Counted from the stretch's first letter, positions 651 through 15,846 are shown. The stretch is DNA of 64,000 nucleotides from an uncultured bacterium (GCA_965552055.1 CBEVQO010000005.1:13373-77372); one strand, 5' to 3'. Notes: generated by a model not told the origin, from the letters alone. Program-made: numbers and translations.

Positions 651-703
651 ACTACCCCCTGGTAGTTACTACCACCTGATAGTATATTCGAAATGTCATT
701 ATG

Positions 704-1051
704 TCAATAAATTTTAAACAAATGGGATTTACATCTACAATCAGATGAGCCAAAGTTTTCAACACAATCAAAATATTTTGCCAGATTTTGGGCAATTTTA
801 CATTCGAAAGATTTTTCATTTGTCTCAATACAAAAAGCACAGATAGGAACTGCTTTTCTCAAAAGGTAATCGATATGCCAGTGCAATTTCTTATCCCGTG
901 AAAAATGCCTTTTAATACGAGGAAATAAACCCTGTAATGCCGACCCCACATATACATAAAAACCTTTTTCAAAAAAGATTTCACCAAGTTTCCCTATTTT
1001 TATCCTCTGAGAGACAGGAAGCCAGATTAAAAGAGCATAAACGCCTTTTAT
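704..1051 (-). CDS. GIY-YIG nuclease-superfamily protein (DUF123-like); N-terminal boundary unresolved
   Basis: ORF-track entry 704..949 starts at GTG, but the same frame is open upstream to a stop at 1085-1087 and encodes ...KGVYALLIWLPVSQRIKIGKLGEIFFEKGFYVYVGSA... (GIY- and YIG-like strands). This is followed by HWHIDYL and a C-terminal Cys cluster (CVENFGSSDCRCKSH). No ATG/GTG/TTG lies upstream of the GVY motif. Confidence 0.45.
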   Translation of the reverse strand: MKGVYALLIWLPVSQRIKIGKLGEIFFEKGFYVYVGSALQGLFPRIKRHFSRDKKLHWHIDYLLRKAVPICAFCIETNEKSFECKIAQNLAKYFDCVENFGSSDCRCKSHLFKIY

Positions 1052-2364
1052 TTTTTCTCCTTTTTCCTCTTCATTATCACCGATTTACCGTATTTGAAAA
1101 GGTGTACAAGAGGACGATGGGCAGGACACTGGAAAGCACAGCATCCACATTCAATGCAGTCAAGCAAGCCCCATTCTTCTGCTTCATCAAATTTGCCTTT
1201 CTCAACAAAGTCAGCAATATAAACAGGAGTAAGATGCATCGGACAAACTTCAAGACAACATCCACATCTTATACAATTGGTTTCATGTGGTAGATATACA
1301 TTTTGAATACTTTGAACAAGAATACCAGATGTGCCTTTCACTACGGGTACTTCATCCGATGCCTGAGCTATACCCATCATGGGACCGCCCATTATCACTT
1401 TGCCCGGTGTGTCTATGTATCCTTCACAAAAATCAATCAAGTCTTTAAACAAAGTGCCAATTCTACAAATTAAATTTTTGGGATTTATAACATCACCTGT
1501 TACTGTGATAGCACGCTCGACAAGTGGCTTTCCATATTTGCATGCTTCATAAATCGCAATGCATGTGCCTACATTTTGCACATAACAGCCGATGTGAAAG
1601 GGAAGACCACCAGATGGCACCTCACGCCCAGTTATCGCTTTAATGAGCTGTTTTTCCGCACCCTGGGGATATTTTGTTTTCAAAACTTTTATTTCAAAGC
1701 CATCGTCTTCTTTCAATTCGTTTTCCATCACTTTTATTGCTTCTGGTTTATTATCTTCAATTGCTATGTAGCCTTTTTTTGCATTGAGAGCACGCATTAT
1801 GAGTTTGCCACCTTCGATGATTTCTCTTGGACGCTCAAGCATCAATCTGTAATCACAGGTAAGATAAGGCTCGCATTCACATCCATTTAAGATTACGATT
1901 TCAACGGGATATTCAGGTGGGGGAGAGAGTTTCACATGGGTGGGAAATGCAGCACCACCGAGACCAACGATACCTGCTTCTTTAACTGCCTCAACAATAT
2001 CTTTTGGCGAAAGTTTATCCGTATCTCTCTCTGTGAGGGAAATCCATTCATCTTTTTCATCGCTTTCGATTATGCACGATAAAACTTCCCGGCCAAGTAC
2101 GGGATGGGGATAGGGGGCAACATCTATCACTTTGCCAGATATTGTAGCGTGAATGTTAGCAGAGATAAATCCTTGCAGTTCACCTATTTTTTGACCTGTT
2201 TTAACTACATCGCCTTTTTTCACGAGTGGTTTGGCAGGTGCACCTGTATGCTGTGAGAATGGTATTACAACTTTCTTTGGCAGGGGTGCTTTCTCCAGTT
2301 TGCTGTCTTTTGTAATTTTACATTCTGGTGGATGGACACCTCCTTTAAATGATAGTTTACCCAT
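1048..2364 (-). CDS. RnfC-family FeS flavoprotein (SLBB / NADH-binding / two 4Fe-4S motifs), not in an rnf operon
   Basis: N-terminus MGKLSFKGGVHPPE and the block GAAFPTHVKL...ILNGCECEPYLTCDYRLM are RnfC-like. Two ferredoxin motifs CIRCGCCLEVCP and CIECGCCAFQCP. ORF track starts at GTG 2370; the ATG at 2362-2364 with GAGG 5 nt upstream is the more likely start. Confidence 0.7.
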   Translation of the reverse strand: MGKLSFKGGVHPPECKITKDSKLEKAPLPKKVVIPFSQHTGAPAKPLVKKGDVVKTGQKIGELQGFISANIHATISGKVIDVAPYPHPVLGREVLSCIIESDEKDEWISLTERDTDKLSPKDIVEAVKEAGIVGLGGAAFPTHVKLSPPPEYPVEIVILNGCECEPYLTCDYRLMLERPREIIEGGKLIMRALNAKKGYIAIEDNKPEAIKVMENELKEDDGFEIKVLKTKYPQGAEKQLIKAITGREVPSGGLPFHIGCYVQNVGTCIAIYEACKYGKPLVERAITVTGDVINPKNLICRIGTLFKDLIDFCEGYIDTPGKVIMGGPMMGIAQASDEVPVVKGTSGILVQSIQNVYLPHETNCIRCGCCLEVCPMHLTPVYIADFVEKGKFDEAEEWGLLDCIECGCCAFQCPAHRPLVHLFKYGKSVIMKRKKEKK

Positions 2365-2384
2365 CATCACCTCACATTTCTATA

Positions 2385-2411
2385 AACTTAATCAATATAC
2401 AGGTATGTCAA
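2385..2411 (-). promoter_or_regulatory. sigma70-like promoter (TTGACA-N15-TAAGTT) for the RnfC/GIY-YIG/ATPase genes
   Basis: Minus-strand TTGACA at 2411-2406 and TAAGTT at 2390-2385. Same ~45-nt block as the promoter upstream of the response-regulator gene at 11189-11215. Confidence 0.45.
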
Positions 2412-2413
2412 CA

Positions 2414-2521
2414 ATTTTTAGCCCCGCCTCCCTATCCCCACCGCCCTCGTGCACACCCCTCCTTTCAGTCGGGGTGTTGACTCACAACCCGTATGTAATA
2501 AGCTCGGCTACGCCTCGCATT
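2414..2521 (-). repeat. Intergenic GC/G-tract-rich repeat, copy 1
   Basis: Plus-strand text atttttagccccgcctccctatccccaccgccctcgtgcacacccctcctttcagtcggggtgttgactcacaacccgtatgtaataagctcggctacgcctcgca. Shares blocks with copies at ~11218-11296, ~15680-15846 and (reverse complement) ~24161-24266. Contains inverted repeat ACACCCC/GGGGTGT (2453-2459 / 2471-2477). Confidence 0.5.
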
Positions 2522-2539
2522 AAAAATTTTAAAGCCGCT

Positions 2540-3196
2540 CTAATATTCACCTTTGTGGTGTTTTATGACTTTGCCTTCTACCATAAATATCACATCTTCA
2601 CAGATGTTTGTAGATAAATCTCCTATGCGCTCTAATGCATGAGAAATTCTCAACAAATGCAGTGAGCGCTCGATGGTAGATGGGTCCGAACACATATAAG
2701 TAATTAGCTCTCTTAAAATCTGCTCACCTAAATTATCAACAATTTCATCACTCTGGCACACTATCCTGGCCTTCTCTGTATCTTCGTTTATAAAAGAATC
2801 TATGGCTTTCTTTAACATATTTGTGGCTTCTTCAGCCATCCTTGGAATATCAATTAATGGTTTGACAGGCGGTCTTTCTATCAAAAACATGGCACTTTGT
2901 GATATATTTACTGCTAAATCGCCGATCCTCTCTAAATCGTTATTCATTTTTAAAATCATAAGAATAGTTCTTAAATTTTTTGCCTCTGGCTGATACAGGG
3001 CGATTAAATTTGTGCATAATTCATCTAATTCTATCTCAAATTCATTCATCTTTGGTTCATATTCTTCTATTACTTCTTTTAAAATTTCTTTCCTTTTTTC
3101 AATAAGTCCTTTGATTGACTTTCTAACCATATCTTCAGCCAGTCCTGCCATCTCAATTAATTTCTTTTTTAATATATTGATTTTTTCTGCAAGCAT
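2540..3196 (-). CDS. phoU: Phosphate transport system regulator PhoU
   Basis: 218 aa with two repeated halves, each carrying LERIGD (LERIGDLAVNI, LERIGDLSTNI). Sits directly downstream of pstB. Confidence 0.85.
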   Translation of the reverse strand: MLAEKINILKKKLIEMAGLAEDMVRKSIKGLIEKRKEILKEVIEEYEPKMNEFEIELDELCTNLIALYQPEAKNLRTILMILKMNNDLERIGDLAVNISQSAMFLIERPPVKPLIDIPRMAEEATNMLKKAIDSFINEDTEKARIVCQSDEIVDNLGEQILRELITYMCSDPSTIERSLHLLRISHALERIGDLSTNICEDVIFMVEGKVIKHHKGEY

Positions 3197-3205
3197 ATCA
3201 CCTCC

Positions 3206-3961
3206 TTATCCAAATTTACCCATTAGATAATCTTCTGTACGCTTATCCCTGGGTCTTGTAAATACTTCTTCAGTTGGACCATATTCTATAAACTCTCCAT
3301 GCATAAGAAATGCTACATAGTCAGATACTCTTGCTGCTTGTTGAATATTGTGAGTTACGATAATTATTGTATATTTATTTTTCAAGTTTTCAAGTAATTC
3401 TTCGAGTTTCGCAGTAGCTATTGGGTCTAAAGCAGATGCAGGTTCATCAAGTAGTATTATTTCGGGCTCAACAGCCAGTGCCCTTGCTATACAAAGTCGT
3501 TGCTGCTGACCACCTGAAAGTGCGAGTGCAGAAGTATGTAATCTATCTTTAACTTCATCGAAAAGATTAGCATCTATCAGTGCCTTCTCAACCCTTTCCT
3601 GTAATTCTCTTTTATTTTTAACTCCATGAATTTTTAGTCCATATGCCACATTCTCAAATATTGATTTGGGTAAAGGATTGGGCTTCTGGAATACCATGCC
3701 TACTCGTTTGCGAAGCTCATACACATCGATGTCATCAGAATATATATCTTTGCCGTCAATAAGAATTTGTCCCTCTACTCTTGCATCATCAATTAAATCT
3801 ATCATTCGGTTGATGCATCTTAGAAAAGTAGATTTACCACAGCCAGATGGTCCCATTATCGCAGTTATCTTATTTTCCTTTATAGATATGTTATTATTAA
3901 CCAAAACATGTTTATCCCCGTACCATACATTTAAATTCTTAACGATTATTTTGTCTACCAT
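3206..3961 (-). CDS. pstB: Phosphate ABC transporter ATP-binding protein PstB
   Basis: Walker [13 protein letters not shown] signature [15 protein letters not shown], Walker [13 protein letters not shown]. Position within pstSCAB order. Confidence 0.9.
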
Positions 3962-4800
3962 TTCTTTCTTCTTCTTTTTATTCTTATTAGTATAGCTGTT
4001 AAGTTTATTCCCACAACGAGTATAAGGAGCACAAGAGCAGTTCCGTAAGCGATAGGCACCTGCAAATCGGGTTTCGTTCCTTCTGTCATCAATGCATAAA
4101 TATGGTAGGGTAATGCCATTACTTCATCGAATATTGACCTTGGTAATCTTCTTGTATAAAAAGTAGCGGCTGTGAATAAAATAGGTGCTGTTTCACCTGC
4201 TGCTCGCCCTATCCCGAGTATAACACCTGTTAATATACCGGGCATAGCATTGGGAAGGACAACATGGGTTATCGTTTGCCATTTTGTCGCACCCAGTGCA
4301 TAAGATGCCTCCATGAATGTTTGAGGCACAGTAAGAATAGCCTCTTCACTTGCTCTTATTATCGTGGGTAATATAAGCATCCCTAATGTCAGTGCTCCTG
4401 CAAGGATTGATACTCCAAATTTAAACAATTTTACAAAAACCGCAAGTCCAAAAAGCCCAAATACAACAGAAGGCGTACCGGCGAGTGTATTTATGCCTAT
4501 TCTTATAATTCTTGTTAGTTTAGATGATTTCGCGTATTCGGTTAGATAAACGGCACTCAAAACCCCTAAGGGTAAGGCAAAAAGTATCGCACCTACAGAA
4601 AGATAAAGTGTACCAATAATAGCAGGGAAAATGCCTCCTTTTGTCATGCCTTCTCTCGGGAAGTCAAAAATAAAATTTAAACTCAAAACTTTAAATCCAC
4701 GAATAAAGATAAAAAAGAGTATTATAAAAAGAGAAAGAACCGCTATCAAGCATGCAAACCTGCACATCAAAAAACCTATATTTTGTTTAAATCTTCTCAT
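3955..4800 (-). CDS. pstA: Phosphate ABC transporter permease PstA
   Basis: Multi-pass permease with ABC transmembrane-domain signature region; sits between pstC and pstB. Confidence 0.8.
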
Positions 4801-5656
4801 AACCTTTTTCTTTTATGTAATTTGCCAAAATATTTAATCCCAGAGTTATTAAAAACAGTATTATGCTGATAGCGAATAGTGCGTGATAATGGGGACTTCC
4901 TACGGGTGCTTCTCCCATTTCTGCTGCAATAGTCGCTGTCATAGGTCTAACGGGTTGTAAGAATGAATGCGGGATGACCGCTGCACCTCCTGCAACCATA
5001 AGCACAGTCATTGTCTCACCTATTGCCCTGCCAAGACCCAGAATAATGGCTCCTAAAATTCCTGATTTCGCAGAGGGTATGATTGCTCGCGTTAGCGTCT
5101 CCCATTTGGTTGCTCCCAATGCATATGATGCCTCTTTTATTTCTTTTGGAACAGATGCTATAGCATCTTCTGCTATGCTGGTAATCGTTGGTAGTGCCAT
5201 AATTCCAAGAAGACAAGACGCAGTAAAGGCGTTCAATCCCACAGGTATTTTAAAAAGCTTTTGTACAAATGGTGCAAAAACTACCATACCAAAGAAACCG
5301 TATATTACAGAAGGTATGCCCGCAAGAAGTTCTATCATCGGCTTTATAATTTCTCTAATTTTTGGATGACTCAATTCAGATATATATATTGCCGTGCCTA
5401 TTCCAAGTGGAACGGCTACCATCATTGCACCAAAAGTAACAATAAGTGAAGCCAGAATGAGTGGTAATATGCCGAACTCAGGTGGCTCATGGGTAGGATA
5501 CCAGAACTTACCGAAAATGAATTTTACAGGATTTACTATTTTAAAAATTGGGAGTCCTTCTTTGAACAAAGAAATAGCAATTCCAAATAGAAAGATAATT
5601 GATAAAGAGGCACAGAAGCGAAGCATATATTCGATGAATTTTTCCTTCTTCAACAT
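4787..5656 (-). CDS. pstC: Phosphate ABC transporter permease PstC
   Basis: Multi-pass permease following pstS. ORF track begins at 5713, overlapping pstS by 44 nt; the internal ATG at 5654-5656 (MLKKEKF...) avoids the overlap and has a weak AAGAG upstream. Confidence 0.75.
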   Translation of the reverse strand: MLKKEKFIEYMLRFCASLSIIFLFGIAISLFKEGLPIFKIVNPVKFIFGKFWYPTHEPPEFGILPLILASLIVTFGAMMVAVPLGIGTAIYISELSHPKIREIIKPMIELLAGIPSVIYGFFGMVVFAPFVQKLFKIPVGLNAFTASCLLGIMALPTITSIAEDAIASVPKEIKEASYALGATKWETLTRAIIPSAKSGILGAIILGLGRAIGETMTVLMVAGGAAVIPHSFLQPVRPMTATIAAEMGEAPVGSPHYHALFAISIILFLITLGLNILANYIKEKGYEKI

Positions 5657-5669
5657 TTTATCACTCTTA

Positions 5670-6506
5670 TCATTCATCTGTCGGCTTAACAGGAACAAAT
5701 CCAGCTTCTTCAACTATCTTTTGTCCTTCTGGGTTCAGAACGAAATCAATAAACTCCTTCGCTAAGCCCTTTGGTTTTCCGTCCGTATAAAAATAAAGCG
5801 GTCTTGAGAGTTTGTATTCCCCTGATGCTACTGTCTTTTTAGTAGGCTTTACTCCATCAACTGTGAGTGCTTTAACTTTTGATGAAACATATCCGAGTCC
5901 CACATATCCTATAGCGCCAGGTGTCTTTTCCACAGTTGTAGCAACTGCCTTATTTGATGCTAGCATAAGCGCATCTGCTCTCGTCTTTGCACCTTTTAAA
6001 ACCAGTTTTTTAAAAACTTCAAATGTGCCTGATGCTACATCTCTCGATATCACCACAATTCTGCCGGATTTACCGCCTACATCTTTCCAGTTGCTTATCT
6101 TACCGGTATAAATATCTCTTAATTGTGCCATAGTTATTTCTGACAGCGGGTTAGATGGATGCACGATAATAGCTATACCATCGCGTGCAATTACAGTAGC
6201 TACGGGATTTATACCTTTACTCCTTGCGGATTTAAGTTCTTTTGTTTTCATTGGTCTTGATGCCATAGCAATATCGCATGTTCCGTCAATAAGAGCAGCA
6301 ATACCAACACCAGAGCCACCTCCTCTTACACTTATATCCACATCAGGATGCTGTTCCATGAATTTTTCAGCGCATAATTGAGCGATTGGAAGTACTGTCG
6401 TTGAGCCAGTCAGCGTGAGAGTTTTTTTAGCGAATGCTGTCTCATACATGAGCACCTGTGCAGATATTACACCTGCACATACTATATTTTTGACCCATCC
6501 CTTCAT
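5670..6506 (-). CDS. pstS: Phosphate-binding protein PstS (periplasmic substrate-binding)
   Basis: Signal peptide, then TLTLTGSTTVLPIAQ...VRGGGSGVGIAALIDGTCDIAMASRPMK typical of PstS-family binding proteins. First gene of the pstSCAB block. Confidence 0.8.
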   Translation of the reverse strand: MKGWVKNIVCAGVISAQVLMYETAFAKKTLTLTGSTTVLPIAQLCAEKFMEQHPDVDISVRGGGSGVGIAALIDGTCDIAMASRPMKTKELKSARSKGINPVATVIARDGIAIIVHPSNPLSEITMAQLRDIYTGKISNWKDVGGKSGRIVVISRDVASGTFEVFKKLVLKGAKTRADALMLASNKAVATTVEKTPGAIGYVGLGYVSSKVKALTVDGVKPTKKTVASGEYKLSRPLYFYTDGKPKGLAKEFIDFVLNPEGQKIVEEAGFVPVKPTDE

Positions 6507-6518
6507 GCTACACCTCCC

Positions 6519-7526
6519 TTAAAAAGGATTTGTCGCAAATTCCCATCTTAATTGCATTAGAAATTCATTCTCAGCATCTTTATTCTGGTTTTCATATTGC
6601 TTTCGTTCGTAATTTACCTGTAGCATCACACCTGGTTTACCTTTTTTACGCCTAACAATGTAATAGTTAAAACCGCATATCATTCTGTAGTGCGCATCTT
6701 TTTCTTTATCAATATTTTCATCCCAGTAATCAACTCTGCCTACTAACTCAAGATTAGGGTTGAGTTTTAAAACCGGCATTATCATAGCACCTAATCCGGT
6801 AATTTCGGGTTTGCCCGTTTTTGTAAAAACGAGTTCACCCCAGCAATCAATCGGTCTGCGTGCAACTCTACAAACACCAGCCATTAAAAATCTTTTTGAT
6901 GCTTCTTTTTTCTCATAAAGGAGAGACCCACCGATAGTTAACCCGGGTATGGGTATAAATCTAACATTACCAACAAATGCAGGATACTTATCAACATTAC
7001 TTTTGCATTTCTTATAACCTTCTCCGTTATAGATTCCGAGTTGCCACTCTCCCATTCCTTTCGGAATATCCGCATTGAAAGTTACGCCGTAGTCAGCACT
7101 TGATACTAACTTCTCTTTATCTTCGAATGATTTTTCAATGGTTACATATTTCCAGTCATAAATAGTTCCCCAGTAAGTTTTCTGTAATCCTGCTGTAATC
7201 TTACCATAAGGGATGATACTCTTAAAATCGAGATACCCGTATTTAAGTTTGATACCAGCTCCATGTGGGTCTTTATCGCTTGAGAATATATCGACATTTA
7301 TTCTACATTTGATTTTATCGGTGAATGCATGTTCCCATCGCAAGTAGCATCTCTCCAGTGCAAAATAACTTTCATCCAGTCCTGTAGTTTCGCCTGCCTC
7401 TCTGGCTGTATATCTGAACCATGTATATGCTTTGAACTGAGATTCCCCCGGTATCAGCCCAGCGTACGAGCAATATGCATAAATCGTCCCCAAAAGCATC
7501 AGCACTTTTATAAATTTACACATCAC
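6519..7526 (-). CDS. Outer-membrane beta-barrel protein, putative phosphate-selective porin (OprO/P-like)
   Basis: Signal peptide MMCKFIKVLMLLGTIYAYCSYA, aromatic-rich alternating pattern, C-terminal Phe (..ATNPF). Lies immediately upstream of pstS in the same operon. Porin specificity is inferred from context only. Confidence 0.45.
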   Translation of the reverse strand: MMCKFIKVLMLLGTIYAYCSYAGLIPGESQFKAYTWFRYTAREAGETTGLDESYFALERCYLRWEHAFTDKIKCRINVDIFSSDKDPHGAGIKLKYGYLDFKSIIPYGKITAGLQKTYWGTIYDWKYVTIEKSFEDKEKLVSSADYGVTFNADIPKGMGEWQLGIYNGEGYKKCKSNVDKYPAFVGNVRFIPIPGLTIGGSLLYEKKEASKRFLMAGVCRVARRPIDCWGELVFTKTGKPEITGLGAMIMPVLKLNPNLELVGRVDYWDENIDKEKDAHYRMICGFNYYIVRRKKGKPGVMLQVNYERKQYENQNKDAENEFLMQLRWEFATNPF

Positions 7527-8026
7527 ACCTCCTTTTTGCTTTTCATATTAATCCTCATCTTCCTTATAAGCAGTTGCCTAATTTGTCTCACTTTCTCTCT
7601 CCGAATACCTAACTCCTCAGCTATCTGTGATAAAGTTTTTCCCTCTTGAAAATGCAATTCAAATATTTTTTGCTCAAGTTGAGATAAGTTTTTAGCAATA
7701 GAAGATATATCTAAATTCATTCCTCTATAATCTTCATTCCTGTTATTATCTTCTAAAATTTCTTCATTTAATTCTAAAAGTCTCATGGTTTGTATTTTTT
7801 CTCTCCTGACTGCTTCCACAATTTTTTTCTTTATCCAGTAAAATGCATAAGTTGAAAATTTTGAGCCATTGGATGGTTCAAATCTTTTTTCTGCTTCAAG
7901 TAGTCCCAGAAATCCTTCCTGTATTAAATCCTCGAGTGGCACACCATTTCCTTTGTATTTAGTAGCAATTGATTTTATCATAGGTAAATAATCCATGCAC
8001 AATTTTGTAAGTCTATCGCTTTTCAT
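7523..8026 (-). CDS. Small sigma-70-family sigma factor (ECF-like) embedded in the phosphate cluster
   Basis: Region 2-like DLIQEGFLGLLEAEKRFEPSNGSKFSTYAFYWIKKKI and region 4 HTH-like LSQIAEELGIRREKVRQIRQ. 167 aa. 4-nt overlap with the porin gene. Confidence 0.6.
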   Translation of the reverse strand: MKSDRLTKLCMDYLPMIKSIATKYKGNGVPLEDLIQEGFLGLLEAEKRFEPSNGSKFSTYAFYWIKKKIVEAVRREKIQTMRLLELNEEILEDNNRNEDYRGMNLDISSIAKNLSQLEQKIFELHFQEGKTLSQIAEELGIRREKVRQIRQLLIRKMRINMKSKKEV

Positions 8027-8741
8027 TTGTTTTCCTCATTAAGTAAATTGCAACATTTTCATTTTTTCTTATAGCATCTTTTATTGCTTCGATATTCTTT
8101 TCTGCTTTTATTAATGTCTTCCACGAATAAAGGTGCCAAGGTTCATGGAAATCAGAATTTGCAATATAATTGTATTTCTTTACTCCAATTGAATTAAACA
8201 AATCATCGCGATTGGCAACTTCCCAGGCATCAAACATTTCTTTGAATTTTTCCTGATTCTCCCATAAATACCATGATAGATGTTCTTTATCTTCTTTTTT
8301 CCTGTCCGGATGAGCAGCAATAACAATGGCATTTTGCTCTTTTACTTCTTTAATAATCTCTTCCACAGGTAAAGATGGTTCAACATATTCTTTTATATCT
8401 ATGGCAAGAATGTGATATAAATCACGATTATTGGTGATTTCTACTCCCGGAATTAACAGCATGTTGTATTCTTTCCATGCTCTTTTTGCTTCTTTCCATA
8501 ATGTTTTTAAATAATCCTTAAAATTTTCTTTTGTTATCGCATTTATTTGTTCTCCTTTCCTTATACGCTCTTCAAGGGTATACTTATCTAAAATATGGTC
8601 AGTTATTGAAATAACATCAAAACCATGTTTCCCGAATAGATCAACAACTTCTCTAAGTGGTAGTTTGCCGTCGCTAAATTTTGTGTGAATATGGAAATCG
8701 CAAAGCAACCAGTTCATCTCACTCACATAATTTATACACAA
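8013..8741 (-). CDS. PHP-domain metal-dependent phosphoesterase
   Basis: N-terminal CDFHIHTKFSDG (HxH metal motif), further His/Asp positions (ITDH, AAHPD, SDFHEP). Probable start at the internal Met MNWLLCDF. Confidence 0.6.
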   Translation of the reverse strand: MCINYVSEMNWLLCDFHIHTKFSDGKLPLREVVDLFGKHGFDVISITDHILDKYTLEERIRKGEQINAITKENFKDYLKTLWKEAKRAWKEYNMLLIPGVEITNNRDLYHILAIDIKEYVEPSLPVEEIIKEVKEQNAIVIAAHPDRKKEDKEHLSWYLWENQEKFKEMFDAWEVANRDDLFNSIGVKKYNYIANSDFHEPWHLYSWKTLIKAEKNIEAIKDAIRKNENVAIYLMRKTNEKR

Positions 8742-8780
8742 TAATTGTTAAGTGAGTATAAAGGAAATGTTAATTTTTGG

Positions 8781-10499
8781 TTAAGATGGGAATGTAATTA
8801 TGAATTCTGTTCCTTCACCTACTTTGCTTTTTACATCTATTTTTCCATTATGTAAAAGCACAACATGTTTTACAATAGAAAGACCAAGTCCTGTTCCACC
8901 AAGTTTCTTGGAGCGAGATTTATCAACAACATAAAATCTTTCAAATATTCGGGGAAGATGCTCATCAGGAATGCCAATCCCTGTATCCCTTACGCTCACA
9001 ATTACTTTTTTATCCACTCTCTTTAAGGAAACAGTCACTTCTCCTTTCTCTGTGTATTTAATAGCATTATCTATTAAATTGATAAACAGTTGCTCCAATT
9101 TAAAAGGGTCTCCCTTTATTACAGGTTCGCCTTCACATATCAAATTCAATTTTAGCCCCTTTTCTTTTGCTTTTTGTTCAAATATTTTAAATACATTTTC
9201 TACTATGCACCTTAAATTTGCATTTTCCTTTATTTGGGTTAATCCTTTTTCTTCAAGTTCCGATAAGAGAAGCAAATCGTTAACAATATTTATAAGCCGT
9301 TCTGTATGCCGTTTTATAACCTCTAAATAATGTTTAGCATTACCTTCTATTTCTTCCTCTAAAGTTTCAATATACCCTTTTATAGCTGTAAGAGGCGTTC
9401 TTAACTCATGAGAAACATTTATCACAAAATCTTTCTTTATCCTTTCAAGTTTTTTAAATTCGGTAATATCATGCAAAACAATTATCAGCTCTTCCTTAGA
9501 AGGTATAATGACAAAACTCGCTAAAAATACTTTTCCATTCAATTCTATCTCTTCAGAAGATATTCTTTTTTCTCTCTTTACCTTCTCTATCAATTCTGCT
9601 ATCTTTGGATTTCTTAAAATTTCCCACCAGAATTTTCCTTCGGGATTTGTCTGGACAACTTTTTTGAAAGATTCATTAAAAAGAATGATTTTTCCTTCTT
9701 TATCCAGAACTAAAAGCCCTTCTTCAAGAAAAGAGATGATGCTATTTAATTCCTCTTGCTTCAATGATAAATCATTAAACAGACGCTTTAATTCTTCTGA
9801 CATTCTGTTGAAACTGCGAGCTAATTCTCCTATCTCATCTTCCCTTCTAAACATTACCTTCGTAGAAAAATCACCACCAGACAATTTTTTAAATGCCAAG
9901 GCAAGTTCTTTTAAAGGATGAGAAATATTTCTTGAAAAAAGGAAAGCTCCTATTAAAGATAGAAGTGTCACAAAAATTACAATCGCAAAAATTTTAAGCC
10001 TGAGGTTATTGAGCAATTTATTTATGTCCTTTAAAAATAAACTTACTCTTAAGATGCCCACGAAGTTTCCTTTTGACTTAACAGGTATCGCGACATATAG
10101 CATCTCTTCTTTCACTGTGGTGCTGAATCTTAAAGATTTACCGAAGCCTTTCTCTCTGGCTTGCTTGACCTCAGGTCTGTTGCTGTGGTTCTCCATTTGT
10201 CGAGGGTCTTTCTCTGAATCTGCCCAAACTTCACCAGAAGGTGCAATAACTGTGATCCTTGTCTTTATTTTTTTACCTACATTTTTAACAAGAGAATCTA
10301 AACCATTGTAATCTTTCCTCTCTATAAAAGGTAAAACTTGAGGTTTAAGTGCGTAAGCTAAATTTTTAAGTTCTAAAGACAGGGTGTTTATGTAATGATG
10401 CCTTATCGTTTTAAAAGAAAAAACGAACACAAGGATTGAAATCAAAAAAATGATTAAACAGAAGCAATAAAAGATTTTAAAGAATATGGATTTTTTCAT
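8781..10499 (-). CDS. Sensor histidine kinase, PhoR-like (periplasmic sensor, HAMP, PAS, HisKA, HATPase)
   Basis: Two TM segments flank a ~150-aa extracytoplasmic domain. H-box HELRTPL, N-box NLIDNAIKYT, G-boxes DTGIGIP and GGTGLGLSIVK. 4-nt overlap with the upstream response regulator. Confidence 0.8.
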   Translation of the reverse strand: MKKSIFFKIFYCFCLIIFLISILVFVFSFKTIRHHYINTLSLELKNLAYALKPQVLPFIERKDYNGLDSLVKNVGKKIKTRITVIAPSGEVWADSEKDPRQMENHSNRPEVKQAREKGFGKSLRFSTTVKEEMLYVAIPVKSKGNFVGILRVSLFLKDINKLLNNLRLKIFAIVIFVTLLSLIGAFLFSRNISHPLKELALAFKKLSGGDFSTKVMFRREDEIGELARSFNRMSEELKRLFNDLSLKQEELNSIISFLEEGLLVLDKEGKIILFNESFKKVVQTNPEGKFWWEILRNPKIAELIEKVKREKRISSEEIELNGKVFLASFVIIPSKEELIIVLHDITEFKKLERIKKDFVINVSHELRTPLTAIKGYIETLEEEIEGNAKHYLEVIKRHTERLINIVNDLLLLSELEEKGLTQIKENANLRCIVENVFKIFEQKAKEKGLKLNLICEGEPVIKGDPFKLEQLFINLIDNAIKYTEKGEVTVSLKRVDKKVIVSVRDTGIGIPDEHLPRIFERFYVVDKSRSKKLGGTGLGLSIVKHVVLLHNGKIDVKSKVGEGTEFIITFPS

Positions 10500-11176
10500 T
10501 CTTCTATTTTGTAGCCTATTCCTCTTACGCTTTTTATAAATTTCTTGGCTTTGCCTAATTTTTCTCTTAAATTCTTAATATGGACATCTACTGTCCTATC
10601 CAGAACAACTTTATCAATTCCCCATAATTTATCCAGAATCTGGTCCCTTGTAAATACCCAGCCTTTTCTTTCTGCCAGTATTTTTAGAATCCTGAATTCC
10701 GTTGGAGTTAAGTCCACTTTTTTATTTTCAACAAAGACTTCATATTTATTGAGGTCTATTACGAGGATATCACCTATTTTAATCTTTTTGCAGGTATCAT
10801 GCGGTGCTTTCCTTCTTAAGACTGCTTTTACTCTGGCAACTAACTCCCTTGGTGAGAAGGGCTTTGTCACATAATCATCTGCTCCCAGTTCCAGACCCAA
10901 AACTTTATCTGCTTCGGTAGTGCGTGCGGTAAGCATAATGATAGGAATAGATTTAAATTCATCTTTTGATTTTAGATACTTACAAACCTCAAAGCCATCC
11001 ATATCAGGAAGCATGAGATCCAAAATTATAAGGTCAGGTATCTGTGAGGATAAAAATTCGAAGAAATCTTCAGCATTCTGAAAGCATTTAACTTTAAAAC
11101 CATGCTTAGTGAGATGTAAAGATACAAGCTCTAAAATATCAGGCTCATCATCTATCACAGCTATTAATTCATTCAT
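10496..11176 (-). CDS. OmpR/PhoB-family response regulator (PhoB-like)
   Basis: Receiver domain (DDEPDIL, LDLMLPDMDGFEV, conserved Lys in YVTKPF) plus winged-helix output (LTPTEFRILKILAERKGWVFTRDQI). First gene of the phosphate cluster. Confidence 0.85.
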   Translation of the reverse strand: MNELIAVIDDEPDILELVSLHLTKHGFKVKCFQNAEDFFEFLSSQIPDLIILDLMLPDMDGFEVCKYLKSKDEFKSIPIIMLTARTTEADKVLGLELGADDYVTKPFSPRELVARVKAVLRRKAPHDTCKKIKIGDILVIDLNKYEVFVENKKVDLTPTEFRILKILAERKGWVFTRDQILDKLWGIDKVVLDRTVDVHIKNLREKLGKAKKFIKSVRGIGYKIEE

Positions 11177-11188
11177 CGCATTTCTCTA

Positions 11189-11215
11189 AACTTATTCAAT
11201 ATACAGGTATGTCAA
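11189..11215 (-). promoter_or_regulatory. sigma70-like promoter (TTGACA-N15-TAAGTT) for the Pho cluster; near-leaderless
   Basis: Minus-strand TTGACA 11215-11210 and TAAGTT 11194-11189. The ATG at 11176 lies about 12 nt after the -10 with no SD. Block is near-identical to 2372-2416. Confidence 0.45.
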
Positions 11216-11217
11216 CA

Positions 11218-11296
11218 ATTTTTAGCCCACCTCCCTATCCCCACCTCCCTATCCCCACCCCACAACCCATTGGTAATTAGCTCGCTTACGCTCGCA
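11218..11296 (-). repeat. Intergenic GC/G-tract-rich repeat, copy 2 (internal 14-bp tandem duplication)
   Basis: atttttagcccacctccctatccccacctccctatccccaccccacaacccattggtaattagctcgcttacgctcgca. Tandem 14-mer acctccctatcccc at 11229-11242 and 11243-11256. Lacks the hairpin block seen in copies 1 and 4. Confidence 0.5.
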
Positions 11297-11303
11297 TTTT
11301 TAC

Positions 11304-11331
11304 TTGACATCCTTAAAGATAAAATTATAAT
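11304..11331 (+). promoter_or_regulatory. sigma70-like promoter (TTGACA-N16-TATAAT) for the restriction-modification operon
   Basis: TTGACA 11304-11309 and TATAAT 11326-11331. The ATG at 11340 lies about 8 nt after the -10, so the AGGAG directly abutting the ATG is probably not a functional SD and the mRNA is likely leaderless. Confidence 0.5.
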
Positions 11332-11339
11332 TAAAGGAG

Positions 11340-12041
11340 ATGAATCTAAAGGAAGTTCAAAATAGACTTCAAGAAATTAAAAATAAAGGATTTGTGCCAT
11401 CTTTAAGAAGAGGAACAACAGGAATTGGATACACCTTTGAGATACTTTTTGGAATAAAGGAAAACAATATCCCAATCCCAGACATCGGCGGAAGAGTTGA
11501 AATTAAAACAATAAGAAGAGATTCGCAATCTTTAATAACATTATTTACTTTTAATAGAGGCGTCTGGCATATAAAGCAAAAAGAACTAATCAAAAAATAT
11601 GGATATGTTGATAAAAAGGGTAGATATGCATTAAAAAATACGGTTTTTTATGGCAAATCCATTCCACAAGGAATATCATTAGAAGTAGATGAAGATAAAA
11701 ACACTATTCATTTAGTTGATACGAATACAAAGAAAGTCCTTGCAACATGGGATGTTTATGTCATTGTCGGTATATTTATGACAAAATTGAGCAAATTATT
11801 ACTCGTAATAGCTGATAGAAAGAAAGAGAAAGGTAAAGAATATTTTCACTACAATGAAGCTTACCTTTTGACAGATCCCAGTGCTCGAAATTTTATAAAA
11901 GCATTTAAAAATTCCCTAATAGGCATTGATATTAGAATGCATCTAAAAGAAAGCGGAGAAGTTAGAAATAGAGGAACTGCATTCCGTATAAAAGAAAAGG
12001 ATTTATTAGAACTTTATGAAAATCGCAAGAAACTTATTTAA
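11340..12041 (+). CDS. Putative type II restriction endonuclease, MutH/MvaI/BcnI-like PD-ExK fold
   Basis: 233 aa with a candidate PD...ExK active site (IPIPDIGGRVEIKT) in a MutH-like arrangement. Stop is 2 nt before the SPPY methyltransferase gene. Confidence 0.5.
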   Translation: MNLKEVQNRLQEIKNKGFVPSLRRGTTGIGYTFEILFGIKENNIPIPDIGGRVEIKTIRRDSQSLITLFTFNRGVWHIKQKELIKKYGYVDKKGRYALKNTVFYGKSIPQGISLEVDEDKNTIHLVDTNTKKVLATWDVYVIVGIFMTKLSKLLLVIADRKKEKGKEYFHYNEAYLLTDPSARNFIKAFKNSLIGIDIRMHLKESGEVRNRGTAFRIKEKDLLELYENRKKLI

Positions 12042-12043
12042 AA

Positions 12044-13312
12044 ATGCCTGCAATTATGCATAGATTTAAAAAATATAGAGACAAAACATGGGATTTTCGT
12101 ATGGCGAATACAAAGCAATATACTCATTGTTTTCATTCTTATCCTGCAATGATGATACCGCAAGTCGCAGGACGCATTTTGGATGAATTTGGAAAAAATT
12201 CTAAACTTTTATTCGATCCATATTGCGGTACAGGAACTTCTTTAGTAGAAGCAAATTTAAGAGGCATAAATGCTATCGGCACAGACATTAACCCATTGGC
12301 TAGATTAATAGCTAAAGTTAAAACAACCATTATTCCTTTAAAATCTTTGGATTTATATATAAAAGATTTCAACGATTTTGTTCTTTCAATACGATTAGGA
12401 GGGAGAAAAGTTTCTCCTAAAATTCCTAATTTTAAAAATATCGATTATTGGTTCAAAAAAGAAACACAATATTGGCTCGCTGTCATTAAAGAATATATTG
12501 AAAAAATTGATAACGAAGATATTAGGGACTTCTTTAAAGTAGCATTTAGTGAAACAGTAAGAGAAGTATCGTTGACCCGAAATAGTGAATTTAAACTATA
12601 TAGAATGAGTGAAAAGCAAATAGAGAAATTTAATCCCGATGTTTTCTTTATAATGATGGAGAAATTAATAAGAAATAGAAATGGAATGGCAGAATATATC
12701 AAAATAAAAAAGAACAAAGCATCTTCTAAAATCTACGATTTTAACACAGTCTATGAGATTCCATTCGATATAATTCCACCAGAAAGTATAGATATCGTGG
12801 TAACTTCTCCACCATATGGTGATTCTAGAACCACAGTAGCATATGGACAATTTTCTCGACTCGCTAACCAATGGTTGGAATTTGAAGAAACTAACGAAGT
12901 AGATAAAAAGTCAATAGGTGGAGTAAGAAAGAAAGAATATAGAAATTTTAATGTTGAAGTGTTAGACAAAGTGCTATTTAAAATTGCACGAATAGATGAA
13001 AAAAGATTATATGATGTGATTTCATTTTACATAGACTATGAAAAATCCATAAATAATGTTGCTAAAGTTGTTAAAAAGGGCGGTATTGTAGCGTATGTAG
13101 TGGGTAATCGCAAGGTAAAGGGCATAGAAATTCCAAATGATGAAATAACCAAAGAATTTTTTGAAAGAAATGGCTTTAAGCATATTAAAACCATAATAAG
13201 AGAAATTCCAAATAAAAGGATGCCTAAAAGAAATAGTCCGAGCAATATAGCAGGAATAACGGATACAACTATGAATTACGAATACATTGTTATCTTGAGA
13301 AAAGAAAAATAA
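12044..13312 (+). CDS. DNA methyltransferase with SPPY motif IV (N4-cytosine/N6-adenine class, alpha-like order)
   Basis: AdoMet motif I FDPYCGTGTSLVEA near the N-terminus and motif IV VVTSPPYGD near residue 255, with the intervening region as presumptive target-recognition domain. Confidence 0.75.
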   Translation: MPAIMHRFKKYRDKTWDFRMANTKQYTHCFHSYPAMMIPQVAGRILDEFGKNSKLLFDPYCGTGTSLVEANLRGINAIGTDINPLARLIAKVKTTIIPLKSLDLYIKDFNDFVLSIRLGGRKVSPKIPNFKNIDYWFKKETQYWLAVIKEYIEKIDNEDIRDFFKVAFSETVREVSLTRNSEFKLYRMSEKQIEKFNPDVFFIMMEKLIRNRNGMAEYIKIKKNKASSKIYDFNTVYEIPFDIIPPESIDIVVTSPPYGDSRTTVAYGQFSRLANQWLEFEETNEVDKKSIGGVRKKEYRNFNVEVLDKVLFKIARIDEKRLYDVISFYIDYEKSINNVAKVVKKGGIVAYVVGNRKVKGIEIPNDEITKEFFERNGFKHIKTIIREIPNKRMPKRNSPSNIAGITDTTMNYEYIVILRKEK

Positions 13313-13318: not shown

Positions 13319-15679
13319 TCACTCATGCTCCTCAAAGCCTTTGAGTAATTCTGCCATTTCTCTCAGTTTCTGGTCAACGAGGTAATTTACGGTATCAGGT
13401 TCATAAGTGCCATCGGGCAAAAGTTTTCCCGCTTTTACACCCGTTAGCAATTCAATGCCTTCATCAATGGTTTTTATCGCATAAATATGAAATTTGCCAT
13501 CTTCAACTGCTTTAACAACTTCTTTATTCAACATTAGATTTTTGATATTCTGATAGGGTATAATCACTCCCTGTGTGCCAGTAAGCCCTTTTGCCTTGCA
13601 TACTCTGAAAAAGCCCTCGATTTTTTCGTTAACACCTCCTATTGGCTGTATCTCACCCCATTGATTCACAGAACCTGTAACAGCGAGGTCCTGACGGATA
13701 GGCAGTCCAGATAGGCACGATAAAAGTGCGTAAAGCTCCGTGCTCGAAGCACTATCACCTTCTATTTCTTCATACATCTGCTCAAAGCATATACTCGCAG
13801 AAAGAGAAAGCGGTTTATTATGTGCATATTTGCCAGCAAGATAAGCACTCAAAATCAAAACTCCTTTGCTGTGAATAGGACCACTCATTTCAATTTCACG
13901 CTCAATGTTTAAAATGCCCTTCTTACCCATATAAACCCTGGCAGTAACACGAACAGGATAGCCAAAAGAATAATCACCGAGCTCAACAACAGTCAAACCA
14001 TTCACCTGACCTACTTTTTTGCCTTCAACATCTATAAGTAATCTGCCTCTTTTTATTTCTTCGTGTATTTTTTCTTCTATCAAATTTACCCTGTAGCGCT
14101 TTTTCTCAAGTGCCTTTTCAACATGCTCTGCCGTCACATATTTACTGCCATCCTGTTCTGCCCAGAAACTCGCTTCAGTTATCACATCAACAACTTCTAT
14201 AAATTTTGTGGATAATTTATCCTGGTCTCCCGTTAACTCCGAGCCATATTCAAGTATGCGTGCTACACCAGATGGGTCAAAATGCTTCAAATTTTTATCC
14301 CTGCATTGTTTCGCAATAAACGAAATATAAGCATCAATATGCTCCTTTGTTCTCGGCATCTCTGTATCAAAATCCGCTTTCACTTTAAACAATTTTCTGA
14401 AATCTTCATCAAATTCATGTAAAAGATGATAAAGCAAAGGTGTACCAATCAAAATAACTTTAACATTATGAGGGATGGGTTCTGGACGCAATGTAACAAC
14501 AGGTGTCTGACGCAATTCCTCACCTATATTCTCAATCCTCAACTCCTTTGTCCTTATCGCACGCTTTAAGGCATCCCATACAAATGGATTTAAAAGGGCT
14601 TCTTTCGCCGGTATTATCAAAAAGCCACCATTAGCCCTGTGAAAAGCTCCGGGTTTTATCAAAGTAAAATGAGTTACGAGATTGCCATCAACACTTTTAT
14701 ACTCAATTCTCCCAAAAAGATTATAATATGTCGGATTTGGTTCAAAAACAAGGGGTGCATGAGATAAATGTGAATTATCAACAAAAACATTAACTTTTAA
14801 GTTAAAAAGAAAATCAGGCTCCTCTTCTCCTGAAAGTGATTTTATCTTTTCAGTAAATTGTGCAAGGTATTCTTTGACACCATCAAAATATTCTTTCAAT
14901 TTCTTATATTTCTGATATTTCGCTTTAAGTTGTTTCACATATCTTCCGACCACATTTTTTACAATCCATTCATCGAGCTGTTTTATTTCTTCTCTCATTA
15001 CATCGTCAATTTCATGTAGCTTATGGAAGGTTTCGTCGAGTTTTTCCTTTATATATGCTCCTGCTTTTTCAATTTTTTCTTTTTCCTTTTTCGGAAGGGC
15101 TTCGAGTTCTTCAAGTGTATATTGTGTGCCATCTTCTTTCAGTGGCACTGCAAAAAGACCTGCAGGACGCCTTAAAACTTCAAAATTATATTTGCGGGCT
15201 TCTTTTTGTAATGATTCTAAAATTTCGGATTTCTTAGCTTCATATTTCTCTTTTATCGTATTGACTTCACGAAAATACTCATCGGATTTGAAAAAATGAG
15301 GCAATTTCTTTTTGCATGCGATTATTAATTTCTCCATATCTTCTGCAAGTTCTTTCCCTTTGCCTTTATCAAGTTCAACAAAAATAGGTTCTTCTGGCTT
15401 TTTAAAATTAAAAAGATAACAATAATCCTTTGGCGGTGGTAATTTTTTTGCGTATTCTTCTACAAATGCACGAACAGTGGAAGTCCTGCCGGTGCCAGGC
15501 AATCCCGATACAAATATGTTAAAGCCATCGGCTTTGGTCTGCAGACCAAATTTTATAGCTTCTACTGCACGCTCCTGACCAATGGTGCCGGTAAGTGGTT
15601 TGACTTCTTCAGTACTCTTAAATTTAAATTGCGAAATATCATATTTTAATCTAAGTTTATCAGCACTTAATTTTTCCAT
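13319..15679 (-). CDS. Lon-like protease (LonB/LonC-type) with degenerate P-loop
   Basis: P-loop-like GLPGTGRTS (Arg in place of the Walker A Lys) and no clear hhhhDE Walker B. C-terminal Lon protease domain with EGDSASST (Ser) and FFRVCKAKG (Lys). ORF track starts at TTG 15751, but the first 24 codons are the intergenic repeat; the likely start is ATG 15677-15679 (MEKLSADK...). Confidence 0.7.
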   Translation of the reverse strand: MEKLSADKLRLKYDISQFKFKSTEEVKPLTGTIGQERAVEAIKFGLQTKADGFNIFVSGLPGTGRTSTVRAFVEEYAKKLPPPKDYCYLFNFKKPEEPIFVELDKGKGKELAEDMEKLIIACKKKLPHFFKSDEYFREVNTIKEKYEAKKSEILESLQKEARKYNFEVLRRPAGLFAVPLKEDGTQYTLEELEALPKKEKEKIEKAGAYIKEKLDETFHKLHEIDDVMREEIKQLDEWIVKNVVGRYVKQLKAKYQKYKKLKEYFDGVKEYLAQFTEKIKSLSGEEEPDFLFNLKVNVFVDNSHLSHAPLVFEPNPTYYNLFGRIEYKSVDGNLVTHFTLIKPGAFHRANGGFLIIPAKEALLNPFVWDALKRAIRTKELRIENIGEELRQTPVVTLRPEPIPHNVKVILIGTPLLYHLLHEFDEDFRKLFKVKADFDTEMPRTKEHIDAYISFIAKQCRDKNLKHFDPSGVARILEYGSELTGDQDKLSTKFIEVVDVITEASFWAEQDGSKYVTAEHVEKALEKKRYRVNLIEEKIHEEIKRGRLLIDVEGKKVGQVNGLTVVELGDYSFGYPVRVTARVYMGKKGILNIEREIEMSGPIHSKGVLILSAYLAGKYAHNKPLSLSASICFEQMYEEIEGDSASSTELYALLSCLSGLPIRQDLAVTGSVNQWGEIQPIGGVNEKIEGFFRVCKAKGLTGTQGVIIPYQNIKNLMLNKEVVKAVEDGKFHIYAIKTIDEGIELLTGVKAGKLLPDGTYEPDTVNYLVDQKLREMAELLKGFEEHE

Positions 15680-15846
15680 TTTTAGCCCCGCCTCCGCTGT
15701 CCCCACCTTCCCGATTAAGTCAGCCCACTCCTTACCCTTCTTTAAACGCAATCAGAAGATAAAGCGTAAACAACCCGAATAACCCACATCCCCGTAATGG
15801 GCTGACATATCAACCCTTATGTAATGTGCTCGGCTGCGCCGAGCAA
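15680..15846 (-). repeat. Intergenic GC/G-tract-rich repeat, copy 3 (divergent middle, perfect 7-bp palindrome)
   Basis: tttttagccccgcctccgctgtccccacc ... caacccttatgtaatgtgctcggctgcgccgagca. Shares 5' and 3' blocks with copies 1, 2 and 4; the middle carries inverted repeat GTCAGCCCA/TGGGCTGAC. Abuts the Lon-like start codon directly (GGGGCTAAAAATG). Confidence 0.45.
15828..15844 (-). terminator. Hairpin GCTCGGC-tgc-GCCGAGC just downstream of the membrane-protein gene stop
   Basis: Perfect 7-bp stem, 3-nt loop, 4 nt after the stop at 15849. Only a weak U-rich tail follows, so terminator function is uncertain; it is also the conserved 3' block of the repeat. Confidence 0.3.

Follow-up and report, generated by a model that had tools for sequence, protein, structure and literature searches.

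Why should a gene for a small sigma factor, and beside it one for a PHP-domain phosphoesterase, lie within a cluster of phosphate-response genes? The question is raised by a stretch of 64,000 nucleotides (nt) of DNA from an uncultured bacterium (GCA_965552055.1 CBEVQO010000005.1:13373-77372; hereafter the window, with positions counted from its first letter), in which ten open reading frames (ORFs), all on the minus strand and spanning 11176 down to 2540, encode a PhoB/PhoR-like two-component system, the phosphoesterase, the sigma factor, a porin, the Pst phosphate transporter and PhoU. The textbook Pho regulon is a two-component circuit whose response regulator is thought to work via the primary sigma factor. 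We find that the small sigma factor is primary-sigma-like, consists of two domains and is tied to phoBR across several candidate phyla, and that it appears to be undescribed (literature searched; no specific Pfam or NCBIfam family). A pho-box-type promoter element, P1, which we read as PhoB-dependent, lies between phoR and the phosphoesterase gene. We consider it probable that the array is a phosphate-starvation island of two linked units, in which PhoB-activated P1 drives PHP-sigma-porin-pstSCAB-phoU and the mini sigma forms a tier whose level is set by PhoB. The features of the array, in the order in which they would be transcribed, are as follows (lengths in amino acids, aa).

10496..11176, minus strand: PhoB-like OmpR-family response regulator, 226 aa (Response_reg and Trans_reg_C; TIGR02154 PhoB is the best NCBIfam match)
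8781..10499, minus strand: PhoR-like sensor kinase, 572 aa, sCache-HAMP-PAS-HisKA-HATPase (Pfam and NCBIfam)
8730..8785, minus strand: P1, pho-box-type promoter element, 56 nt (gap-free alignment to relatives and weight matrix)
8013..8717, minus strand: PHP-domain metal-dependent phosphoesterase, TM0559 ortholog, 234 aa (PF02811; match to 2ANU)
7523..8026, minus strand: mini sigma-70-family factor, 167 aa, domains 2 and 4 only (Sigma70_r2 and r4)
6519..7523, minus strand: 16-strand outer-membrane porin of a divergent OprO/OprP-like branch, 334 aa (AlphaFold2, Foldseek and Pfam matches of the family)
5670..6506, minus strand: pstS, phosphate-binding protein (TIGR02136)
4787..5713, minus strand: pstC permease, with its true start probably downstream of 5713 (TIGR02138; the match begins at ORF residue 24)
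3955..4800, minus strand: pstA permease (TIGR00974)
3206..3961, minus strand: pstB ATPase (TIGR00972)
2540..3196, minus strand: phoU (TIGR02135)

The ORFs are joined by overlaps of 1-14 nt (phoB/phoR, 4 nt; PHP/sigma, 14 nt; sigma/porin, 1-4 nt; pstC/pstA, 14 nt; pstA/pstB, 7 nt) or by gaps of 9-63 nt (phoR to PHP, 63 nt; porin to pstS, 12 nt; pstB to phoU, 9 nt). A preliminary description of this DNA had reported the ten genes as a single minus-strand array, and all of the ORFs are found at the coordinates it gave, with the domains it named (Pfam and NCBIfam). Its coordinates stand in general except at two starts: PHP most likely begins at ATG 8717 rather than TTG 8741, and the porin most likely begins at ATG 7523, a start supported by a 334-aa homolog (P0121). 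A scan for terminator-like sites found five, compared to 5.7 expected by chance, and none was convincing on the minus strand within the array.

Conservation of the sigma gene beside phoBR

The window's ten proteins were mapped onto loci fetched from metagenome-assembled genomes (MAGs) and metagenomes, numbered here with the prefix L, some of which are near-duplicates. The named relatives are Cloacimonadota and WOR-3/Stahlbacteria MAGs, and some MAGs are labelled Omnitrophota or Deltaproteobacteria. In 19 loci (L001, L002, L004-L008, L012, L014-L022, L100 and L101) the sigma gene lies directly 3' of a PhoR-like kinase gene on the same strand, and in Cloacimonadota only 5-40 nt separate the two. 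The preliminary description had allowed that its account would fall if the sigma gene were absent from this position in all relatives, which is clearly not the case. In the remaining loci of interest the sigma gene is parted from the phoBR pair, or from the end of the contig, only by Pho-regulated cargo (window, L003, L011, L092, L093, L097). This cargo is PHP in the window, L092 and L097, and a complete phn carbon-phosphorus (C-P) lyase operon in L003; in L011 and L093 it comprises a phn-type TIM-barrel gene and PHP, both ahead of sigma, and the contig stops short of any kinase gene.

The position of the sigma gene is kept while that of the transporter genes varies. The pst genes lie downstream in loci of the window type and in L001, L002, L006, L012, L017 and L101, upstream on the same strand in L019-L021, and in divergent or convergent orientation in L008 and L022; none was found within 10 kb in L004, L005, L016, L018 and L100. 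Even between lineages with as little as 32-46% identity in the sigma protein, the gene has kept its place after phoR. One locus, L100, holds a second mini-sigma copy (15540-16155) at a distance of 5 kb, behind a 45-aa HATPase fragment, apparently from partial duplication of the kinase-sigma pair.

A small sigma factor close to the primary sigmas

The sigma protein matches Sigma70_r2 (PF04542, 74 bits) and Sigma70_r4 (PF04545, 36 bits) and scores 114 bits with TIGR02937 (cut-off 43), while regions 1.2 and 3 gave no Pfam match. Its score with the Pfam model for extracytoplasmic function (ECF) sigmas, PF07638, is 20.0 bits, below the cut-off of 21.1. When a profile of 53 family members was compared with solved structures, the best matches were the primary sigmas SigA and RpoD, followed by RpoS, FliA and RpoH, with WhiG also among the top 60 and no ECF sigma in that number; a Foldseek search with the model of the protein again returned primary sigmas. 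The AlphaFold2 model consists of two helical domains with a disordered linker at residues 90-104. Seven residues of regions 2.2-2.4 are invariant in the family (D33, Q36, E37, G41, F57, Y60 and A61) and W64 is nearly so, and the core-binding and DNA-melting residues of region 2 are kept throughout, as in members of the sigma-70 family. In region 4.2, E144 and R147 are invariant and the equivalents of E585, R588 and Q589 are conserved. The family shares with ECF (group 4) sigmas the two-domain sigma2-sigma4 layout without region 3, but neither their sequence affinity nor a cognate anti-sigma factor: no anti-sigma-like gene lies beside sigma in the window or in the relatives' loci examined.

An exhaustive search yielded about 100 clusters at 50% identity, each of proteins of 150-200 aa that match the profile end to end. 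In a separate survey of species-representative genomes with the sigma alignment, the back-translated patterns also caught ordinary RpoD-type sigmas; family members are only the first 11 of its 80 loci, making this an incomplete taxonomic survey, and the other 69 loci were used as negative controls.

Sigma factors governed by two-component systems have precedents. In Streptomyces sigE-cseABC, a small two-domain sigma is encoded with a kinase-regulator pair and controlled by that system of its own operon, via transcription rather than through an anti-sigma; the signal (cell envelope stress), the gene order and the sigma family (ECF) differ from those considered here. In Pseudomonas aeruginosa, PhoB turns on the alternative sigma VreI (PUMA3) under phosphate limitation, as we would suppose for the window, and VreI additionally requires PhoB to act at its own promoters, which carry a pho box (PMC4971064). 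VreI is however a genuine ECF sigma, works with an anti-sigma (VreR) and a receptor (VreA), and has a gene that lies apart from phoBR, whereas the window's sigma is primary-sigma-like, has no adjacent anti-sigma gene and is physically linked to phoBR. Searches of the literature for a PhoBR-linked sigma, or for an ECF classification with phosphate context, returned nothing relevant.

A pho-box-type promoter between phoR and PHP

The 63-nt gap between phoR and PHP has the sequence TCTTAACCAAAAATTAACATTTCCTTTATACTCACTTAACAATTATTGTGTATAAAT. P1, which takes in most of this gap, contains four 7-nt direct repeats at an 11-nt phase, CTTAACC (8785-8779), ATTAACA (8774-8768), CTTTATA (8763-8757) and CTTAACA (8752-8746), followed by 9 nt, an invariant G (8737) and TATAAA (8736-8731); the stop codon of phoR (TAA, 8783-8781) falls within the first repeat. 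The Escherichia coli pstS promoter likewise has four 7-nt repeats at an 11-nt phase, ending about 10 nt before the -10, and the TTAACA half-site of P1 is similar to the Bacillus subtilis PhoP half-site TT(A/T/C)ACA. The region 8730-8785 thus has what defines a pho box, at least two 7-nt direct repeats at an 11-nt phase in place of the -35 and about 10 nt before a -10, and eight copies of the element align without gaps. The direct repeats of pho boxes and the contact of PhoB with sigma-70 have been reviewed (PMC4415409). We read P1 as a PhoB-dependent promoter.

The element recurs widely among the relatives. Gap-free alignments place it before the sigma gene in L001, L002, L003, L006 and L012 and, as two copies, before PHP and before sigma in L011; between these loci the sigma proteins share only 41-73% identity. 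Elements of this design also lead the porin-pst operons of L008, L010, L013, L017, L019, L020 and L022, Cloacimonadota and WOR-3 loci included, and pho-box-like repeats precede a Na/Pi-cotransporter-PhoU gene in L004; the phn operon of L003 and each cassette of L011 have copies of their own. The consensus is (C/A)TTAAC(C/A)-N4-(A/C)TTAACA-N4-nTTATAn-N4-nTTAACA-N9-10-G-TATAA, in which the G directly before the -10 is invariant in all aligned copies and the TATAA strongly conserved. A position weight matrix built from 12 copies was used to scan 0.51 Mb of relatives' loci and window, with a hit threshold of at least 15 bits, and 1.17 Mb of unrelated control loci. It found P1 in the window (71 bits) and 28 hits in the relatives, each lying shortly before a Pho gene and on its coding strand, compared to a best score of 7.7 bits in the controls. 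Sites outside the training set were recovered at 61 bits (L101) and 24.6 bits (L008), together with five sites within sigma genes. The consensus is usable for predicting the Pho regulons of uncultured lineages from metagenomes, a use that concerns the Cloacimonadota of anaerobic digesters as well as phosphate-limited bacteria of sediments and hydrothermal sites.

An internal promoter that split the array was, in the preliminary description, what would overturn its picture of one operon. Such a promoter does exist between phoR and PHP; being of Pho type, it links the units rather than separating unrelated ones, and the one-operon picture holds for this genome from PHP onward.

Two other interpretations of the -10 were considered and rejected. 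Housekeeping promoters of the Bacteroidetes type, under which the Pho -10 would need a special sigma, do not fit the TTGACA-16-TATAAT at 11304-11331 or the TTGACA before the ribosomal RNA (rRNA) operon. An ECF-type promoter with an AAC -35 and a CGTATA -10, as for B. subtilis sigma W, would require a spacing of 16-17 nt, and the distance from AAC to GTATA is about 8 or 30 nt. As a minor observation, the first gene behind P1 starts only 10-16 nt past the -10, and its Shine-Dalgarno sequence is weak or missing (8718-8736 in the window; L001, L002, L011 and L012), so the leader would be very short and the transcript nearly leaderless.

A second promoter within the sigma gene

In five relatives (L002, L006, L011, L012 and L097) the matrix scan placed a second copy of the element, P2, within the last ~45 nt of the sigma ORF (for example L097, 7983-8038), and L001 has the same repeats at this 3' end with a score below threshold. 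The conserved C-terminal tail of the sigma family, I-N-Q-K-L-T-E-D-L-Y-A-V-N, is encoded by ATTAACCAAAAATTAACAgaaGATTTATATGCAGTTAAC, and the second pho-box promoter encodes the tail INQKLTEDLYAVN. In L006, L012 and L097 even the stop codon (TAA) of sigma lies within the -10 of P2 (GTATAAT). The last codons of sigma are in these lineages DNA that is at once coding and regulatory. From P2, porin-pst would be driven separately from the sigma gene. Behind P2, a strong GGAGG is found some 21 nt past the -10.

The window and the same-species locus L092 have lost ~45 nt at the 3' end of sigma, and P2 with them: the protein ends in ...RINMKSKKEV and its gene overlaps the porin start. This loss ties PHP, sigma, porin and pst all to P1. 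L101 has the single-promoter layout too. In the relatives each cassette (PHP, phn, sigma, porin-pst) has a pho-box promoter of its own; the operon from PHP onward is, on this comparison, a derived state.

The phosphoesterase as Pho cargo

The PHP protein scores 31 bits with PF02811 (cut-off 26.4) and is 76% identical over its full length to Thermotoga maritima TM0559 (PDB 2ANU; E 3e-125), with the motifs H-x-H, D, H and H invariant in alignment A5. TM0559 is a stand-alone PHP phosphoesterase known from structural genomics and is not next to pho or pst genes in T. maritima, whereas the window's PHP lies in a pho array. A literature search for TM0559 gave structural mentions only, and a link of this family to phosphate starvation would be the first physiological clue for a protein with a solved structure. 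The window's protein has no signal peptide and its active-site motif starts at residue 7, which makes it a cytoplasmic enzyme and not an external scavenger; most likely it hydrolyses an internal phosphoester.

Outside the window the gene comes and goes. The slot is without PHP in L001, L002, L006, L012 and L101, and two of the copies that do occupy it have lost catalytic motifs: in L092, a locus otherwise 98-100% identical to the window, an in-frame 19-aa deletion in PHP (2532-3176) removes the catalytic GVE motif, and in L097, from a close relative, an in-frame 61-aa deletion (7001-7435) removes the NSDFH motif. The genes around both deleted copies are intact, as is the window's own PHP. The gene nevertheless recurs in pho/pst loci in four arrangements, namely that of the window, L092 and L097, that of L011 and L093, that of L010 (porin-pstS-MGS-PHP-pstCAB-phoU-RR-HK, RR and HK being response regulator and histidine kinase) and that of L094 (RR-HK-PHP-ArsC/LMWP-like-porin-pstSCAB-phoU, LMWP being low-molecular-weight phosphatase). 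We therefore describe PHP, from these comparisons, as a recurrent but dispensable Pho cargo. The preliminary description had made its account depend also on PHP being found at this position in relatives and had seen in it a phosphate-scavenging hydrolase; on the first point the picture for PHP is mixed, and on the second the protein is better described as an optional, cytoplasmic enzyme than as an external scavenger.

Other cargo was seen in the same loci. L003 carries a complete phnCDE-GHIJKLM operon (686-9920) with its own pho-box promoter, and L010 (9585-10004), L094 (7711-8142) and L008 (2176-2649) hold an MGS-like protein and LMW-phosphatase/ArsC-like proteins, the latter with a CX5R motif and two further cysteines downstream. 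These last could be arsenate reductases, which would make sense since Pst also imports arsenate. A common theme of the cargo genes would be phosphate release inside the cell, other sources of phosphorus and the side-effects of arsenate.

The porin and the Pho/Pst core

The protein between sigma and pstS has a signal-peptide-like N-terminus and a C-terminal Phe, and no Pfam match of its own, Porin_O_P (PF07396) included. An AlphaFold2 model built from 44 homologs (pLDDT 90) is a barrel of about 16 strands, and Foldseek matches it to trimeric porins, with OprP (2o4v) having the highest query-normalised TM-score in the list (0.69); the outer-membrane beta-barrel, or putative porin, of the preliminary description is thereby borne out. 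Porin_O_P is matched by 12 of the 44 aligned homologs (best E 2.4e-08), and in the distant locus L101 the gene at this position encodes a Porin_O_P protein, while the family profile gave no sequence-level match to the sequences of solved structures. Since the window's porin itself falls below the Porin_O_P model, it represents a divergent branch. OprP-like porins next to pst are already known, and the anion and phosphate selectivity of OprP resides in an arginine ladder with a lysine cluster. The window's protein resembles Pseudomonas OprP/OprO in its 16-strand fold, its position beside pst and the Porin_O_P matches of its family members; it differs in being ~80 residues shorter and in scoring below the Pfam model.

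The Pho/Pst core is an ordinary, textbook gene set. The curated NCBIfam models are all matched above their cut-offs: PstS (TIGR02136, 299 bits against 207), PstC (TIGR02138, 313 against 196), PstA (TIGR00974, 305 against 193), PstB (TIGR00972, 404 against 343) and PhoU (TIGR02135, 199 against 130). The two regulators have the expected architecture, a receiver with a winged helix and HisKA with HATPase and a PAS domain, and they adjoin pst-phoU in a synteny that is kept in relatives. The core shares with the E. coli and B. subtilis Pho regulons both its genes (phoBR or phoPR, pstSCAB-phoU) and its promoter logic, in which 7-nt direct repeats at an 11-nt phase replace the -35 and lie about 10 nt upstream of the -10. 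It differs in that regulator, transporter, porin and accessory genes are joined in one same-strand array, in that a sigma factor gene is embedded and in that phoR has its stop codon within the first repeat of the promoter.

A proposed phosphate-starvation island and the alternatives

The gene identities, the synteny with its linkage of phoBR and sigma, the conserved promoter element and the two-domain make-up of the sigma are shown here, and the phosphate-starvation island that we favour builds on them. We infer the PhoB binding of the repeats, the induction by phosphate limitation, the target promoters of the sigma and the substrate of PHP, and would picture the circuit as follows. The region upstream of phoB holds no pho-box array, and instead a TTGACA-bearing sequence shared with the upstream region of an rnfC-like gene; a first unit, phoB-phoR, would therefore be expressed constitutively, and a second, PHP-sigma-porin-pstSCAB-phoU, would start at P1 and be activated by PhoB. 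As no terminator lies between the two units, read-through from phoBR into the second is possible. Under phosphate limitation PhoR would phosphorylate PhoB, and PhoB~P would bind the four P1 repeats and recruit RNA polymerase. The firing of P1 would then supply an OprP-type porin, the Pst transporter, feedback control by PhoU, the cytoplasmic phosphoesterase and the mini sigma. Because there is no anti-sigma gene beside sigma, its level would be set by PhoB, and its activity would follow its synthesis. Our best guess is that the mini sigma brings a share of the cell's RNA polymerase to promoters used in phosphate starvation, whether those of a second tier of genes (a cascade), the pho-box promoters together with PhoB (a partner) or both, these options not being exclusive. 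PHP would free phosphate from an internal phosphoester, as one of several cassettes led by Pho promoters (the phn C-P lyase operon, the MGS-like and the ArsC/LMW-phosphatase-like genes being others). The preliminary description had proposed a built-in secondary regulatory tier. With a sigma family conserved after phoBR in relatives and standing behind a pho-box-type promoter, a phosphate-linked regulatory tier is a reasonable reading; the single unit in which it had been placed is revised by the internal promoter.

Several observations weigh against this account. The PhoB-like regulator scores 255 bits with TIGR02154, under the cut-off of 296, and for the kinase the WalK, PnpS and PhoR models are best but all below cut-off (PnpS, 370 against 400; phoR_proteo, 310 against 334); the PhoB and PhoR families are nonetheless top-ranked or near the top in NCBIfam for both genes. 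P1 is the sole site of its type in the 64-kb window, which holds no second one from which to define a regulon. Promoters of the same pho-box design occur in L010 and L094, loci without a nearby sigma gene, so the ordinary primary sigma may suffice to use them. The genome also has canonical TTGACA/TATAAT promoters, a perfect TTGACA-16-TATAAT at 11304-11331 and TTGACA before the rRNA operon, so the mini sigma is not needed merely to read a -10 of the TATAAT type. Finally, the in-frame deletions of PHP in close relatives argue, as far as sequence comparison goes, against an important role for the enzyme.

The most serious alternative, to which we give distinctly less credence than to the island with its PhoB-set tier, is that regulator and sigma are a co-evolving pair without a separate regulon: PhoB~P would recruit the mini sigma specifically at pho-box promoters, where it would replace the primary sigma at promoters of the P1 type, including its own. 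The sigma gene stays beside phoR even where pst has moved, at 5-40 nt after the kinase in Cloacimonadota, and no anti-sigma gene is adjacent; the invariant G before the -10 and the strongly conserved TATAA point the same way, as do the retention of the helix in region 4.2 with which PhoB makes contact in sigma-70 (PMC4415409) and the dependence of VreI on PhoB (PMC4971064). Yet the same promoter design is found in L010 and L094 with no sigma gene in the locus, and canonical sigma-70-type promoters are present in the genome. In the window, moreover, sigma lies downstream of P1, and a strict requirement for it there would need basal read-through from phoBR. Promoters of the E. coli pho type also function with the primary sigma. 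Were such a pairing true, the Pho regulon of Cloacimonadota, WOR-3 and related uncultured lineages would be read by a private RNA polymerase holoenzyme with an RpoD-derived sigma.

It is improbable that the sigma does not work as one, being either the remnant of a truncated rpoD or a regulator resembling a sigma, which titrates PhoB or core RNA polymerase but starts no transcription. Regions 1.2 and 3 are missing from a protein whose sequence is closest to the primary sigmas, as such a remnant would predict, but length and sequence are conserved family-wide, the invariant residues of regions 2.2-2.4 and 4.2 included, and the two-domain layout is that of working ECF sigmas. Least credible, if only by a little, is that sigma and PHP are unrelated insertions into a convenient slot with no role in phosphate physiology: the phoR-pst slot is permissive (depending on the relative it is empty or holds PHP or a phn operon), the PHP copies of L092 and L097 are decaying and the direct repeat that brackets the whole array suggests rearrangement, but sigma has been retained after phoR at 32-46% protein identity in a family of ~100 clusters at 50% identity, has its own copy of the pho-box promoter and, given the synteny survey, is unlikely to be a passenger, while four independent arrangements place PHP in pho/pst loci.

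Returning to the island with its PhoB-set tier, a sigma factor that stays with phoBR in several phyla about which little is known would give the Pho circuit a further layer, either a hard-wired sigma cascade or a private regulator-sigma pair. We could not find the phoBR-tied mini-sigma family, the pho-box consensus of these lineages or a promoter in the C-terminal codons of a sigma gene in the literature searched or as a specific Pfam or NCBIfam family.

Flanking repeat and neighbouring genes

The 8.8-kb array is bracketed by a direct repeat of ~120-150 nt, which lies upstream of phoB and upstream of the rnfC-like gene:

11177..11298, minus strand: copy A (repeat families D4 and D9), upstream of phoB, containing a promoter-like stretch with TTGACA and a tandem 14-mer rich in G
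2372..2521, minus strand: copy B, in the spacer from the phoU stop to the rnfC-like gene's start, with a 31-nt core identical to copy A

A 53-nt stretch of the two copies is 94% identical, and for the identical 31-nt core no match is expected by chance (0 matches). Besides the TTGACA-bearing stretch, the repeat contains a G-rich tract, GGTGGGGATAGGGAGG(T/C)GGGG, which forms a tandem 14-mer in copy A in a genome of ~35% guanine plus cytosine and which, from its sequence, could fold into a G-quadruplex. A partial third copy at 15680-15711 consists of the G-rich part and lies just before the probable start of a Lon-like gene. The repeat may reflect duplication of a promoter when the block was inserted, or may be a dispersed, promoter-associated repeat. 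The RNA fold of the phoU-rnfC spacer was not significant as a terminator (z = -1.2), and a scan of the window with Rfam returned only rRNA and transfer RNA (tRNA) genes.

Divergent from phoB, behind the perfect TTGACA-16-TATAAT, are genes for a restriction endonuclease of the MvaI/BcnI family and an N4/N6 DNA methyltransferase (11304-13312, plus strand). An rRNA operon, complete with 16S, two tRNAs and 23S, and with no 5S match reported, occupies 19266-24049 on the plus strand. At 43217-51430, also on the plus strand, a single ORF of 2737 aa encodes FG-GAP repeats, Ig-like domains and a C-terminal Por_Secre_tail secretion-sorting domain, and contains internal tandem repeats of ~890 nt at 45.8-48.1 kb. 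The promoter-like repeat upstream of it (43145-43200) is common to two copies of the rRNA promoter at 19113-19235, and the Por_Secre_tail domain recurs in the fetched loci of WOR-3 type.

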